Positions 1 through 10,685 of a stretch of 12,688 nucleotides of DNA are shown piece by piece; within the stretch, counting starts at the first letter, position 1, and the number at the start of each line of letters is the position of its first letter. The notes under the pieces were generated by a model. The model searched no databases. It had not been told where the DNA came from and saw only the letters and a program-made list of their open reading frames with translations. Made by a program: the position numbers and the translations under genes. Origin of the DNA: a virus; the UHGV virus genome UHGV-0208284; one strand, given 5' to 3'.

Positions 1-346
1 GGTTGTCCGGTATTTGCCGGTATGGAATTACCGAAAGGCGCGGTAGTTACTGAGTAACAGGCATTACAGCAGCCCTTCAGTGTGAGGGGCTGCGATAATG
101 CCGGTATTAGAGTGCGTGTAAATGATAATCGCTCCCATTTTCACGGGTCCTTTCCGGAATCTGAAACACCGAGGGACGGCATACGCGCAGAAATCGCCAA
201 ATTTTTGCATTTTCATTCGTCATCATCATCTTGTTAACCGCATGATATTTATTGTTAATTTATTTTTTCTATGTCGAAATTGGTGGTTTTTTATTCATCA
301 ACATAAAGCTCGTCGTGATCTTGGTTTTTTATGTGTCGGGTAAATT
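1..346 (+). other. Candidate packaging-initiation (cos-like) region upstream of the terminase genes
   Basis: Non-coding leader directly 5-prime of the small terminase gene, which is where cos lies in lambda-type phages. It holds three copies of CCGGTAT (7-13, 18-24, 101-107), a 7-bp inverted repeat gcagccc/gggctgc (69-75 and 87-93), and an AT-rich stretch (about 220-345) with two GGTTTTTTAT direct repeats. The only ORF here (122-343) is low-complexity and has no ribosome-binding site. No cohesive-end sequence can be identified from sequence alone. Confidence 0.25.
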
Positions 347-844
347 ATGGATCGTGAACTGAAGAATCTTGCACTCAACATCAGTCAGGTAGCTGCTCTG
401 TCTGGATTGCACCGACAAACGGTATCTGAAAGGTTAAAAAAAATTAAAACCGCTGGTGGGCACGACAAACTTAAGTTGTACAAACTCACTGATATTCTGG
501 CTGAGTTATTGAAGTTGCCACCGCCTGTCGCTGAAGGGGAAATGGATCCTCACGACCGAAAAGCCTGGTATCAGTCAGAACGGGAACGCCTGAAATTCGA
601 ACAGGAAGTCGGAGAATTGATCCCTGCGTCTGATGTCGCCCGTGAATTTGCTGAAATGGCAAAGGCTATGGTGCAGGTTCTGGAAACTCTCCCCGATATT
701 CTTGAACGCGATTGTGCTCTTGAGCCTTCGGCTGTCATGCGGGTGCAAAGCATTATTGATGATCTGCGTGACGAAATTGCGCGGCGGGTGGCGGATGACA
801 GCAAACCGGAAGATGAAGAGGAGGAAAATCAGGAGGACGAATAA
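347..844 (+). CDS. Terminase small subunit (Nu1-like, N-terminal HTH, acidic C-terminal tail)
   Basis: 165-aa ORF immediately upstream of, and overlapping by 1 nt (TAATG), the large terminase. It has an N-terminal helix-turn-helix-like segment (ISQVAALSGLHRQTVSERL) and an acidic C-terminus (PEDEEEENQEDE). Position and architecture are typical of lambda-type small terminases. Confidence 0.7.
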   Translation: MDRELKNLALNISQVAALSGLHRQTVSERLKKIKTAGGHDKLKLYKLTDILAELLKLPPPVAEGEMDPHDRKAWYQSERERLKFEQEVGELIPASDVAREFAEMAKAMVQVLETLPDILERDCALEPSAVMRVQSIIDDLRDEIARRVADDSKPEDEEEENQEDE

Positions 845-2961
845 TGCCTGTGCAGGCGACCGCCAGATCTTTGAAACTGGATACAGGCCAGTTAATTAAA
901 GCGCCGCGCAGAATGCCTGTTGCCGAAGCGGTTCAAAAATTTATGCGAGTCCCTACATCTGGTGGCAACTCTGTTCCGTGGGATCCACTGGTTGCACCGT
1001 ATGTGATTGAACCCATGAACTGCCTGTCGTCCCGTGAGTTTGATGCGGTTGTTTTTGTTGGTCCTGCCCGTACGGGCAAGACTAACGGCCTGATTGATGG
1101 CTGGGTGGTTTATAACATTGTCTGCGATCCGTCTGACTTTTTGCTGGTGCAGATGACGCAGGATAAGGCGCAGGAGCACTCCAAAAAGCGCCTGGCAAGA
1201 ACATTTCGTTGCAGTCCGGAGGTCAGAAAACGCCTCAGCCCACGCCGTAACGATAACAACGTTCATGACAAATATTTTCTGTCAGGTAGCTTTCTGAAAA
1301 TCGGCTGGCCATCCATCAATGTCATGTCATCCTCTGATTTTAAATGTGTGGCGCTGACTGATTACGACCGATTTCCTGAAGATATTGATGGCGAAGGCGA
1401 TGGTTTTTCCCTGGCGTCAAAACGTACCACCACATTTATGTCTGCAGGTATGACGCTGGTGGAGAGTTCGCCCGGGCGTGAGATCACAAACAGTAAGTGG
1501 CGCAGAACATCACCGCATGAGGCGCCGCCCACCACAGGTATCCTTTCTCTGTATAACCGTGGCGATCGTCGTCGCTGGTACTGGCCCTGCCCGGATTGTG
1601 GTGATTATTTTCAGCCATCCATGGAGGCTATGACGGGGTATCGTGACAATCCTGATCCTGTAAAAGCGAGTGAAGCGGCTCATATATTATGCCCTCATTG
1701 TGGCAACCGAATCACCGCGGACATGAAACGTGAACTGAATGGACGCGGTGTGTGGTTGCGTGAGGGTGAGCTGATCGACAGGGAAGGGAATGTTACCGGA
1801 ACACCCCGGCATTCAAGGGTTGCGTCATTCTGGATGGAGGGGCCCGCTGCAGCCTATCAGACCTGGGCACAACTGGTTTACAAACTACTGACAGCTGAGC
1901 AGGAATATGAAGCCACAGGCAGTGAAGAAACACTGAAGGCGGTGATTAATACCGACTGGGGATTACCTTATTTGCCTCGTTCTGCACTGGAGTTGCGCAG
2001 TGCAGATGTGCTGATGCAGCGGGCCGAAGATTACGGTAAACGCCTGGTGCCACCGAAAGTACGTTTTCTTATTGCGGCAGTCGACGTGCAGGGTGGGAAG
2101 AACCGGCGGTTTGTGGTGCAGATTACTGGCTATGGTGAGGACGGCGAACGCTGGCTGGTGGACCGTTATAACATCCGGCATTCATTGCGCTGTGATGAAA
2201 ATGGTGAGGCTCTTCCTGTACATCCCGGCGCTTACCCGGAAGACTGGCAGTTGCTGGTCACCGATGTACTGGAGAAAACATATCCGCTCCAGTCCGATTC
2301 GTCCCGCAGAATGCCTGTGCTGGCAATGGCGGTTGACAGTGGGGGTGAGGACGGTGTGACCGATAACGCCTATAAATTCTGGCGAAAATGTCGTCAGGAT
2401 GGACTGGGCCGACGGATTTTTCTGATAAAGGGTGACAGCACGAAACGCCAGAAAATTATCACCATCACACACCCGGATAATACCGGGCGAAGCGATCGCC
2501 GTGCTGATGCCCAGGGAAAGGTGCCGGTATACCTCCTGCAGACGGATCAGTTGAAAGACCAGCTAAGCAATAACCTGCAGCGTGAATCTCCCGGGCCGGG
2601 GTACATTCATTTTCCTGACTGGATTGGAGAATGGTTTTACGAAGAACTGACCTATGAAGAGCGTGGCGCTGACGGTAAATGGCGTAAGCCAGGCAAAGGG
2701 AATAACGAAGCCTTTGACCTTTTCTGTTATGCCCATGCGGTCGCCATTCTGCGTGGCTATGAAAAAATCCGTGACTGGAGTAACCCTCCCCAGTGGGCAA
2801 GAGGGCAGGATGCTGACGCGGGTGCTTCGGCAGACAAACGCTCTTCCGGTGTGGCGGACAAGAAAAACGTTGCCGGAAGAAATGAGCGGCGAGAAGAAGC
2901 GTCGTCAGAAGCGTTATCCGGAAACTGGTTATCACTACCCCGAAACGGAGGCTGGTTGTGA
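844..2961 (+). CDS. Terminase large subunit (lambda gpA-like)
   Basis: 705-aa ORF with a Walker A P-loop (GPARTGKT, nt about 1060-1083) and two CxxC pairs forming a zinc-ribbon-like motif (CPDCGD ... CPHCGN, nt about 1588-1712). Size and domain order match the gpA family as I recall it; it follows the small subunit and precedes W-like and portal genes. Confidence 0.9.
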   Translation: MPVQATARSLKLDTGQLIKAPRRMPVAEAVQKFMRVPTSGGNSVPWDPLVAPYVIEPMNCLSSREFDAVVFVGPARTGKTNGLIDGWVVYNIVCDPSDFLLVQMTQDKAQEHSKKRLARTFRCSPEVRKRLSPRRNDNNVHDKYFLSGSFLKIGWPSINVMSSSDFKCVALTDYDRFPEDIDGEGDGFSLASKRTTTFMSAGMTLVESSPGREITNSKWRRTSPHEAPPTTGILSLYNRGDRRRWYWPCPDCGDYFQPSMEAMTGYRDNPDPVKASEAAHILCPHCGNRITADMKRELNGRGVWLREGELIDREGNVTGTPRHSRVASFWMEGPAAAYQTWAQLVYKLLTAEQEYEATGSEETLKAVINTDWGLPYLPRSALELRSADVLMQRAEDYGKRLVPPKVRFLIAAVDVQGGKNRRFVVQITGYGEDGERWLVDRYNIRHSLRCDENGEALPVHPGAYPEDWQLLVTDVLEKTYPLQSDSSRRMPVLAMAVDSGGEDGVTDNAYKFWRKCRQDGLGRRIFLIKGDSTKRQKIITITHPDNTGRSDRRADAQGKVPVYLLQTDQLKDQLSNNLQRESPGPGYIHFPDWIGEWFYEELTYEERGADGKWRKPGKGNNEAFDLFCYAHAVAILRGYEKIRDWSNPPQWARGQDADAGASADKRSSGVADKKNVAGRNERREEASSEALSGNWLSLPRNGGWL

Positions 2962-3176
2962 AGAAAGAAGAAGTTTATCAGACGCTGGTCATGGTGCGTC
3001 AGGCTTACCGGGACTCCCTTGATGGTAAAAGCGTTTCCTTTACCGGGGTGAATGGTCGCGCCATTACTAATCATGATCCCGCTGCATTACGTGCAGAACT
3101 TGAATACTGGGAAAAACGCTGGGCGGCAGTCTGCCAGCCCACAAGGAAACCGTACAAACTCGCTCGTTTCTCCTGA
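2958..3176 (+). CDS. Head-tail joining protein (lambda gpW-like)
   Basis: 72-aa ORF starting at GTG 2958, overlapping the terminase stop (GTGA), with a GGAGG ribosome-binding site 6 nt upstream. The pattern D-x3-GK-x-V ... GR ... L ... LE resembles lambda W, and it sits between gpA-like and portal genes as in lambda. Confidence 0.6.
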   Translation: MKKEEVYQTLVMVRQAYRDSLDGKSVSFTGVNGRAITNHDPAALRAELEYWEKRWAAVCQPTRKPYKLARFS

Positions 3177-8797: not shown

Positions 8798-9404
8798 AGT
8801 GGCAGAGTTACGCCGCAGGGTGGCGGATATGGTCCGACGCGGCGTGGTGGAGGAGGTGATCCCGGGTAGCCCGGTGATGGTCCGGGTGGATATCGGGGAT
8901 GTGCTTTCACCGCCGTTGCCCTGGATTCAGGTGCAGTCCGGGCGTTACATGCAGGTCAGTAATTACCCGGCACCCGGAGATGCGGTCACGGTGATATCGG
9001 AGGCAGGTGATCTGCGTAATGGTCGGGTGTATCCGGGGGCCAACATTGACGCGATTCCGGTACCGGCGGGCAGTGAACACGAGCATGTTATTTTGTTTGA
9101 TACCGGAACGGAGATCCGTTACGACCGCCAGGCTAATGCCCTGTCCATCACGCTGGCTGAAGGCGGCAGCTATAAAATCACCGGCAGGGGAACGCTTGAC
9201 GGTCCGGTGGAAATCACGGATACCCTGACTGTGCAGGGAAAAACGAAGATTAATGCCGATACGCAGGTTCTGGGCAATATCGGTGCCTCACAGGAGATCA
9301 CCGACAAAACCGGTAGCATGAGTAAAATCCGCGAAATTTATAATACTCATGATCACCCAGGCGACAGCGGGGGAACCACCCGTAAACCTAACCAGGAAAT
9401 GTGA
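8781..9404 (+). CDS. Baseplate assembly/spike protein (P2 gpV-like)
   Basis: 207-aa ORF with a GGAGGG ribosome-binding site 7 nt upstream of the ATG. The C-terminal motif HDHPGDSGGTT (nt about 9349-9381) matches the conserved C-terminal motif of P2 gpV-family spikes as I recall it, and the size matches. The ORF track extends this frame upstream to 8487, but that part overlaps the previous gene and is probably not translated. Confidence 0.85.
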   Translation: MSLADEVAELRRRVADMVRRGVVEEVIPGSPVMVRVDIGDVLSPPLPWIQVQSGRYMQVSNYPAPGDAVTVISEAGDLRNGRVYPGANIDAIPVPAGSEHEHVILFDTGTEIRYDRQANALSITLAEGGSYKITGRGTLDGPVEITDTLTVQGKTKINADTQVLGNIGASQEITDKTGSMSKIREIYNTHDHPGDSGGTTRKPNQEM

Positions 9405-9405
9405 A

Positions 9406-9427
9406 CGCCGCACCGGCGTTTTTTTTT
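9406..9427 (+). terminator. Weak terminator-like hairpin plus T9 tract between baseplate V and W
   Basis: Stem cgccg (9406-9410), loop cac, stem cggcg (9414-9418), then nine T residues (9419-9427). The 5-bp stem is short, so at most a partial terminator or attenuator. Confidence 0.35.
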
Positions 9428-9439
9428 CGGAAAAATTTC

Positions 9440-9796
9440 ATGATTGGTATTGATTCCGCCACTGGCAGATATCTGCACGGTAACGAACATCTGCGTCAGT
9501 CCGTCACCGATATTTTATCAACACCGGTCGGCAGCCGGGTACTTCTCAGGGAATACGGCAGTAGGTTGTTCAGTCTGCTTGATAACCCGCAGGATGATTT
9601 TACGCGGGTGAGGATTGTCCGTGAAACGGCAACCGCCCTTGAACGCTGGGAACCCCGCCTGACCCTCCGGCGGGTGGAGGTGACGTGGACAGGAGAAGGA
9701 AGCGCCTGGCTGACGCTTGTCGGGGTGAACAACGAAACACAGGAAACGATTCGACTCGAGGAGATAAAAATTGGCAGCATCTCAGGCAATCATTGA
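9440..9796 (+). CDS. Baseplate protein (P2 gpW-like, gp25 family)
   Basis: 118-aa ORF. The motif STPVGSRVLLREYGS and an overall pattern (ALERWEPRLTL ... V) resemble P2 W / T4 gp25-like baseplate wedge proteins. The start is taken as ATG 9440; an alternative GTG at 9401 would overlap the V stop and place the hairpin/T9 inside the coding sequence. Confidence 0.8.
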   Translation: MIGIDSATGRYLHGNEHLRQSVTDILSTPVGSRVLLREYGSRLFSLLDNPQDDFTRVRIVRETATALERWEPRLTLRRVEVTWTGEGSAWLTLVGVNNETQETIRLEEIKIGSISGNH

Positions 9797-10685
9797 TCTG
9801 TCCGCGATACCTGTACCGGATGCGGTGGAGGTGCCGGACACCGCTGTACTGGTCACTCAGATAGTGGCGAAATATCAGGAACTGGACACGTTGTTTTCGG
9901 CCCTGGTGGAATCCGATCCGGCGTATAAATGGGCAGAGGCACTGGCTTTTCGGGTGGCGCTGATGCGCCAGCAGGTCAATGATGCTGTCCGGGCTGTACT
10001 GCTTGCCAGTGCCCGCAGGAACGATCTGGATCAGATTGGTGCGAATTTTCAGGTGCAACGTCTGGTGATTACCCCGGCAGATGACAGCACTATCCCGCCC
10101 ACGCCTGCGGTGTATGAAGATGATGACGCTTTTCGCGAACGTATTCAGTTGTCATGGGCACGACTCAGCACCGCAGGCGCGAGAAACGCATACCACTATT
10201 TTGCACAGAGTGCCGATCCTGATGTGCTGGATGTGAAAGCCTACGGACCGGAAACGCATTCACAGGAAGGGCGTGTTTTTCTTTATGTGTTAGCGCGTAC
10301 AGGAAATGGTACGGCATCACAACCTCTGCTGGATAAGGTGGCGGCGTCAGTCAATGATGATGAAATTCGACCCCTGACGGATTTTGTCAGCGTCCGTGCG
10401 GCAGAAATTATTCCCTACGATGTGGTGGCGGATATCCATATTCCCTACGGGCTGGATGGTGAACTGGTGATGAAAAATGCCCGCCAGGCGCTGCAGACCT
10501 ACACTGACAGTGTGCACCGGATTGGCTCTGTGGCGTCCTGCTCAGGTATGGACGGAGCCCTGCATCAGACGGGGGTGATTACGGTGGCACTGAAATCGCC
10601 GGCCAGTGATATTGTTCCGGCGATGGGGCAGGCTCCATGGTGTCGCTCAGTCACACTGAACAAGGTGGAGACAACCGATGAATGA
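9771..10685 (+). CDS. Baseplate protein (P2 gpJ-like)
   Basis: 304-aa ORF. IIDLSAIPVPDAV near the N-terminus and NDLDQIGANFQVQRLVITPADDSTIPPTPAV (nt about 10020-10113) closely parallel P2 J as I recall it. The apparent start is TTG 9771 with a GAGGAG ribosome-binding site 8 nt upstream; it overlaps the W-like gene by 26 nt. The first in-frame ATG is about 65 codons downstream, beyond the conserved N-terminus. Confidence 0.85.
   Translation: MAASQAIIDLSAIPVPDAVEVPDTAVLVTQIVAKYQELDTLFSALVESDPAYKWAEALAFRVALMRQQVNDAVRAVLLASARRNDLDQIGANFQVQRLVITPADDSTIPPTPAVYEDDDAFRERIQLSWARLSTAGARNAYHYFAQSADPDVLDVKAYGPETHSQEGRVFLYVLARTGNGTASQPLLDKVAASVNDDEIRPLTDFVSVRAAEIIPYDVVADIHIPYGLDGELVMKNARQALQTYTDSVHRIGSVASCSGMDGALHQTGVITVALKSPASDIVPAMGQAPWCRSVTLNKVETTDE

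Follow-up and report, generated by a model that had tools for sequence, protein, structure and literature searches.

The region immediately upstream of the terminase genes in UHGV virus genome UHGV-0208284 very probably holds a lambda-type cos site, spanning about bases 122-303 and belonging to a lambdoid prophage with head genes of the Gifsy-2/mEp213/LLS type. We use "the window" for the whole 12,688-nt stretch of this genome that was analyzed, and all coordinates are counted from its first letter. A sequence-only reading of the same DNA had treated bases 1-346 as one repeat-bearing, AT-rich leader and a candidate cos or terminase-binding region. A cos of this type is indeed located upstream of the small terminase gene, but the CCGGTAT repeats, the hairpin and the palindrome that had drawn attention to the region lie outside it, and 1-346 is not a single leader since bases 1-57 are coding. 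The parts that are diagnostic of cos are the cosQ heptamer, the 12-bp nick interval with its CG flanks, the I2-like block, the IHF-like site and the TTCGWCAYC sites. The features of the region are listed in Table 1.

Table 1. Features at the start of the window, with positions, strand and supporting detail.
Feature	Position	Strand	Detail
3' end of 98-aa phage gene, phrog_1935	1-57	+	Last 18 codons; TAA stop at 55-57
Hairpin after stop codon	60-103	+	Outer stem 60-66/96-102, inner stem 69-79/83-93
Mosaic junction, upstream module/cos-terminase module	about 105-121	.	Alignments with A19 and other prophages
cosQ region	122-157	+	ATGATAATC...CACGGGTCCTTTCCGG; homologous to lambda right end
Predicted 12-nt 5' cohesive end AGGGACGGCATA	172-183	+	Inside cosN, ~162-193
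I2-like block CGCGCAGAAATCGCCAAATTTTTGCATTTTCA	184-215	+	Between cosN and cosB; most invariant columns of alignment A1
R3-like candidate TerS site TTCGTCATCATCATC	216-230	+	Conserved CATCAYCAYC block
IHF-like site, I1 equivalent	235-247	-	TATCATGCGGTTA; one mismatch to WATCAANNNNTTR
R2-like site	269-278	-	Reverse complement TTCGACATAG; ATGTCGAA at 271-278 on the plus strand
First GGTTTTTTAT (285-294, T-run spacer) and R1-like TTCATCAACA (294-303)	285-303	+	
Subgroup-specific leader, ~43 nt	304-346	+	Second GGTTTTTTAT at 323-332; weak ribosome-binding region
Small terminase (TerS)	347-844	+	165 aa, DUF1441 family; Pfam PF07278, 2.1e-44
Large terminase (TerL)	844-2961	+	705 aa, lambda gpA family; Pfam GpA_ATPase and GpA_nuclease
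72-aa ORF	2958-3176		Without family match; occupies the position of lambda W

Gene order and protein families

The TerS ORF also matches phrog_141, annotated as 'terminase small subunit', and tblastn with the protein found matches in Gifsy-2, Fels-1, mEp213, mEp460, LLS, cdtI and VT1-Sakai, its identity to the Gifsy/mEp213/LLS group being 42-80%. BLASTP gave no alignment between TerS and lambda Nu1, which leaves it outside the Nu1 family, and a PDB sequence search with TerS returned no match. A single-sequence AlphaFold2 model of the protein had a mean pLDDT of 46, too poor for a fold search, while a weak, sub-threshold HTH_30 match over residues 10-40 hints at an N-terminal helix-turn-helix. 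The TerL ORF carries both the ATPase (PF05876, 1.5e-78) and the endonuclease (PF20454, 9.8e-89) domains, and the terS stop and terL start codons overlap at 841-844 (ATAATG), which suggests translational coupling of the two genes. TerL and the 72-aa ORF are followed by a lambda-family portal and then by a ClpP-capsid fusion, both recognized with Pfam. TerS, TerL, portal and capsid fusion are each a full-length ORF in the window. A DUF1441 TerS directly after cos, followed by a gpA TerL, a portal and a ClpP-capsid fusion, is the composition of the Gifsy-2/mEp213/LLS module.

P2-like baseplate genes were observed after the head module (gp25/W-like, 9401-9796, and J-like, 9771-10685), and an open frame of at least 676 codons that begins at 10660 runs off the end of the window and is 79-95% identical to 'phage tail protein I' regions of E. 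coli. A lambda/Gifsy-like head module ahead of P2-like baseplate genes means that the element pairs a lambda-type head with a contractile-tail baseplate.

The probable cos site at about bases 122-303

In a pairwise alignment, bases 122-157 match the last ~50 bases of the lambda genome, including an exact ACGGGTCCTTTCCGG. The heptamer GGGTCCT at 145-151 is part of 15 bp that agree exactly with the lambda right end, where its counterpart lies 30-24 bases from the end of the lambda record; it occurs only once in the window and is conserved in the relatives of our alignment A1. We take this heptamer to be cosQ, following the work of the Feiss laboratory. Headful (pac) packaging was considered and rejected on the basis of the gpA-type TerL and the homology to cosQ and cosN.

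The nick flanks read ACG/GGGCGGCGACCT/CGCGGG in lambda and the predicted ones CCG/AGGGACGGCATA/CGCGCAG in the window, and those of the window also align with the record starts of LLS, cdtI and yong2. The LLS record begins GGGCGGCGCGCT CGCGGG... with a 12-nt cohesive end annotated, an end that was arrived at by inference rather than measurement (PMC12315714), the cdtI record begins GGGCGGGAGCGT CGCGGA..., and the yong2 record begins CGCGGG.... Among the prophages and IMG/VR loci of the window's subgroup, exactly 12 nt separate ACACCG from CGCGCA, TGCGCA or CACGCA, the interiors being AGGGACGGCATA, GGGGACGGCATA, GGGGGATGCGGA, AGGGGATACGGA and GGGGGATGCAGA; the corresponding 12 nt are GGGGTCTGGGGA in SerU-LTIIb and AGGGTCGGTAGA in vB_EcoM-705R4. 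The interval is constant across these seven interior variants, two of which stand beside other small terminases. Fixed flanks, a fixed length and a free interior are what is expected of an interval between staggered nicks, and we therefore place the cohesive end at 172-183, the predicted nicks following base 171 (top strand) and base 183 (bottom strand), to within ±2 nt.

That register is given as ±2 nt because the distance from cosQ to the nick is 20 nt in the window against 22-23 nt in phi458, LLS and lambda, because the I2-like block is 2 nt longer in the window, and because yong2 has 14 nt rather than 12 between CCG and CGCGGG at its end junction (L026 and L007). For yong2 this means either a top-strand nick shifted rightward by 2 nt or an overhang of a different length. 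The diverged interior of the cohesive end is the least expected feature of the site: in the ungapped register only 3 of its 12 positions are identical to lambda GGGCGGCGACCT, with the divergence extending to the left half. IMG/VR was scanned with an I2-like 30-mer for viral contigs ending at the predicted nick, and the nine loci found supplied further cosN variants. Contig-end distances refer to the three loci whose stored stretch shows an end near the match (L019, L024 and L025), and these ends are 320-585 nt from the I2-like match, not at the nick, so that the scan supplied no support for the predicted ends.

The cosB of lambda, 21, phi80 and Gifsy-1 has the order R3-I1-R2-R1 with R2 inverted (Feiss and colleagues, PMC9026076), and Gifsy-1 has lambda-like 12-nt cohesive ends (PMC4669245, PMC4856287). 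Alignment A1, which covers 11 relatives, consists of conserved blocks between variable spacers, namely CGCG.A.AA..G.C...TTTTT, CATCAYCAYC, TTGAT, TGTCGAA, and a T-run with TTC..CA. Aligning with the cos regions of related prophages had been proposed as a check by the sequence-only reading, and it came out in favor of a cos, as the I2-like, R3, R2, T-run and R1 blocks are conserved in all 11. The I2-like block itself aligns with lambda bases 13-45, and the R3-like site has the same offset as the R3 that an unbiased search located in Gifsy-2, LLS, yong2, VT1-Sakai and L020. In the window and in 9/11 of the DUF1441-TerS relatives, the minus strand carries an IHF-like site at a distance of 50-52 nt from the predicted bottom-strand nick, and it is perfect in E10, WGI31CT, phi458, CP-1639 and cdtI. 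Scanned in the same way with WATCAANNNNTTR, lambda has its site at bases 79-91, again on that strand and with one mismatch. The R2-like site coincides with the conserved TGTCGAA block and in relatives is the inverted partner of R1. The element at 285-303 is a direct repeat of 210-232, and its TTTTTTGTTC..CA is kept in all relatives in A1. The close relatives L018 and L020 have TTCGACAACA as R1, making the TTCATCAACA of the window more degenerate. The R-like sites are TTCGWCAYC-like.

The unbiased search looked for direct-inverted-direct triplets and was scored against 200 shuffles. Triplets at offsets of ~33/85/110 were found in Gifsy-2 (0/200 shuffles), LLS (0/200) and yong2 (4/200), the Gifsy-2 triplet being TCAGCACTGA / TCGACACTGA / TCGACACTGA, and the same offsets were found in VT1-Sakai and L020 with scores that are not significant (28/200 and 23/200, respectively). 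For the window alone the triplet is not significant (26/200 shuffles), the search being dominated by T-rich words, and its R sites rest on positional homology, the positional equivalents being TTCGTCATCA (216-225), TTCGACATAG (reverse complement of 269-278) and TTCATCAACA (294-303). We infer that the R-like sites and the IHF-like site are binding sites for terminase and IHF, respectively.

By analogy with lambda, and provided that this copy is active, the DUF1441 TerS would bind R3 (216-230), the inverted R2 (269-278) and R1 (294-303), with IHF, between R3 and R2, putting a bend into the DNA at 235-247. This would then anchor the gpA-type TerL on cosN, where TerL would make nicks staggered by 12 nt at ~171/172 and 183/184 to leave the 5′ overhang AGGGACGGCATA. 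Packaging would proceed rightward into the terminase and head genes, and the terminating cut at the next cos would need the cosQ heptamer (145-151). The packaging site of this prophage family is now placed precisely enough for end-mapping or cosmid-packaging designs.

Some features could also be read as signs of a decayed, non-functional cos in a defective prophage: R1 is more degenerate than in L018 and L020, there is one mismatch in the IHF-like site, and position 1 of the putative overhang is A in the window and G in the E. coli A19 prophage. Related prophages such as E10 are clearly deleted, TerL in E10 being truncated after ~650 bp and abutting or fused to a baseplate gene fragment (L003 5813-6578); E10 is a deletion remnant that still has an intact-looking cos and small terminase gene. 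We consider decay unlikely for the window, as its TerS, TerL, portal and capsid fusion are intact in length, its cos and terminase stretch is nearly the same in A19 (98.5% identity), and the A at position 1 is shared with E10, L017, L019, L021, L023, yong2 and 705R4.

The AT-rich tract that had been described just before the small terminase gene is there, with a GC content of 0.34-0.385 over 101-400 and the ORF starting at 347. The low GC and T-runs of 200-346 would also suit a tract that is mainly a promoter or regulatory leader of the terminase operon and not a packaging site, and sigma-70-like matches in 1-500 number three against 1.2 expected. All three, however, are on the minus strand, and the conserved blocks fit the cos layout of lambda and Gifsy. 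In addition, transcription of lambdoid head genes starts at a late promoter situated upstream of the lysis genes and passes through cos. A mainly regulatory role is therefore highly unlikely, and we retain the packaging site as the explanation for the conserved blocks, though part of 304-346 may be a translation-initiation leader.

The pair of GGTTTTTTAT repeats (285-294 and 323-332) had been noted as ~37 bp apart in the AT-rich tract. Both are present, 38 bp start to start, and the window has these 2 copies against 0.02 expected. Only the first belongs with the cos: it falls between R2 and R1 in the conserved cosB-like element, overlaps R1, and is likely in the terminase-binding region. The second sits in the leader or ribosome-binding region, next to the start codon. 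A19, L018 and L020 carry this leader; E10, WGI31CT and L023 lack it, and their terS follows R1 directly. It resembles the ribosome-binding region of VT1-Sakai, and within it 310-323 and 325-338 show partial repeat similarity to portions of R3 and R2 (repeats D1 and D2). One could speculate that the window's subgroup is distinguished both by a non-canonical cohesive end (RGGG and a free interior, with fixed ACACCG/CGCGCA) and by the gain of a partly duplicated R-like element at 304-346, an idea we regard as rather doubtful. If true, the cohesive-end sequence and packaging specificity would drift against a constant cosQ and constant nick flanks, and cosQ/cosN would be swapped as a cassette, separately from cosB and TerS.

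The upstream module and its repeats

Bases 1-120 are outside cos. They comprise the terminal part of an unrelated gene with the hairpin 3′ to it, and a recombination junction. Bases 1-57 share 94% identity with the last part of phiP27 L33 and of the A19 gene WP_001585563, and the 98-aa gene of the A19 prophage, the closest relative, ends at the equivalent of window position 57. The near-palindrome reported at about 47-59 is GTTACTGAGTAAC at 46-58, with 6-bp arms, and it spans the TAA stop of this gene. The inverted repeat reported at 69-93 is also present, though as the inner stem of the larger hairpin at 60-103. This hairpin has a predicted RNA fold of -33.7 kcal/mol (z = -5.2 against shuffles) and is kept in phiP27, A19 and E10. 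Neither a T tail nor an intrinsic-terminator pattern accompanies it, and Rfam gave no match within 1-400. It is possible that it represents an uncharacterized RNA element of the lysis-to-head junction.

The three CCGGTAT copies that had been counted within 110 bp are found at 7-13, 17-23 and 101-107. Across the whole window and both strands there are 8 copies against 1.09 expected, a number reached by 0/200 shuffles, with starts at 7, 17, 101, 2480, 2524, 7974, 9100 and 10785; five of the 8 are far from cos and within coding regions. Given this over-representation, with three copies in the first 107 bp, and the unusual stability of the hairpin, one could suppose that the CCGGTAT repeats, the hairpin and the palindrome are terminase recognition elements, either cosB-like repeats or cosN. 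Several observations weigh against this, and we consider it extremely unlikely. Copies 1 and 2 are coding sequence of the 98-aa gene, as is the palindrome for most of its length up to the stop, and copy 3 overlaps the 3′ arm of the hairpin. In A19, copy 2 has changed to CAGGTAT and copy 3 to CCGGTTA; in E10 they read CCTGTAT and CAGGTGT, respectively, although both prophages have the same terminase type.

Comparison with other phages separates this segment from the terminase as well. Window 1-109 is 94.5% identical to phiP27, where it forms the terminal part of hypothetical gene L33 and is followed by an HNH endonuclease gene, then an annotated 10-bp cos and an unrelated HNH/HK97-type terminase; phiP27's own annotated cos is ~400 bp downstream of the shared segment. 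A19 aligns with the window over 1-105 at 94% and over 121-900 at 98.5%, and in place of window 106-120 it carries 265 bp (L002 6104-6368) with a 71-aa ORF of unknown function that has weak PHROG matches only. The point of this insertion, between the 1-105 segment and the cos, marks a hot spot of recombination. In other prophages that have the same terminase, including relatives with the same TerS family, the alignment begins only at 117. Because of the coding location, the sharing with phiP27, the A19 insertion, the non-conserved copies and the relatives that match only from 117, we conclude that CCGGTAT, the palindrome and the hairpin are not tied to this terminase. The result separates eye-catching but irrelevant repeats from the parts of cos.

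Comparison with known packaging systems

The lambda cos shares with the window the exact cosQ and its flanks (ACGGGTCCTTTCCGG) with the ATGATAATC block upstream, the CG flanks of the 12-bp nick interval, and CGCG followed by an AT-rich I2-like segment. Both also have an IHF-like site, on the same strand, separating the first R-like site from the second, and both are located just upstream of terS and a gpA-family TerL. Lambda differs in having a Nu1 small terminase where the window has a DUF1441 protein, and R sites of the CGTTTCCTTTCT type where those of the window are TTCGWCAYC-like. Its cohesive end is GGGCGGCGACCT, compared with the strongly diverged AGGGACGGCATA predicted for the window, and its cosQ-to-nick distance is 23 nt compared with ~20 nt.

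The group of Gifsy-1/Gifsy-2, mEp213/LLS, mEp460/phi458, cdtI and VT1-Sakai has in common with the window the DUF1441 TerS, the head-gene set, and the order and spacing of the I2-like block, R3, IHF, R2, T-run and R1. The cohesive end's left half, GGGCGG, is conserved in lambda-like phages (Feiss and colleagues), and the Gifsy/mEp213/LLS group keeps this canonical GGGCGG... overhang (GGGCGGGAGCGT, GGGCGGCGCGCT). The subgroup of the window instead has RGGG and a variable interior between ACACCG and CGCGCA, as well as the extra ~43-nt leader with the second GGTTTTTTAT.

SerU-LTIIb and vB_EcoM-705R4, compared over L029 900-1140 and L030 900-1012, respectively, have a near-identical cosQ-cosN segment, ...GGGTCCTTTC..AAACACCG/12 nt/CGCGCAAAAAC. 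They differ in what follows it: SerU-LTIIb has a lambda Nu1-type TerS and R sites of the GATCCGTTCTTCTTC type (lambda/21-like), and vB_EcoM-705R4 pairs the segment with another small terminase. Since near-identical cosQ/cosN is joined to other TerS and R sites, the cosQ/cosN and cosB/TerS parts recombine independently, and modular exchange is indicated. This exchange, together with a 12-nt cohesive-end interior that varies freely between fixed flanks, is a modest point that leaves the current understanding of lambda-like packaging unchanged. The small terminase and head genes assign the site to the Gifsy-2/mEp213/LLS branch and not to lambda proper, with a working that is lambda-cos-like. The lambda/Gifsy type of cos is already known, and the window adds a further member to it.
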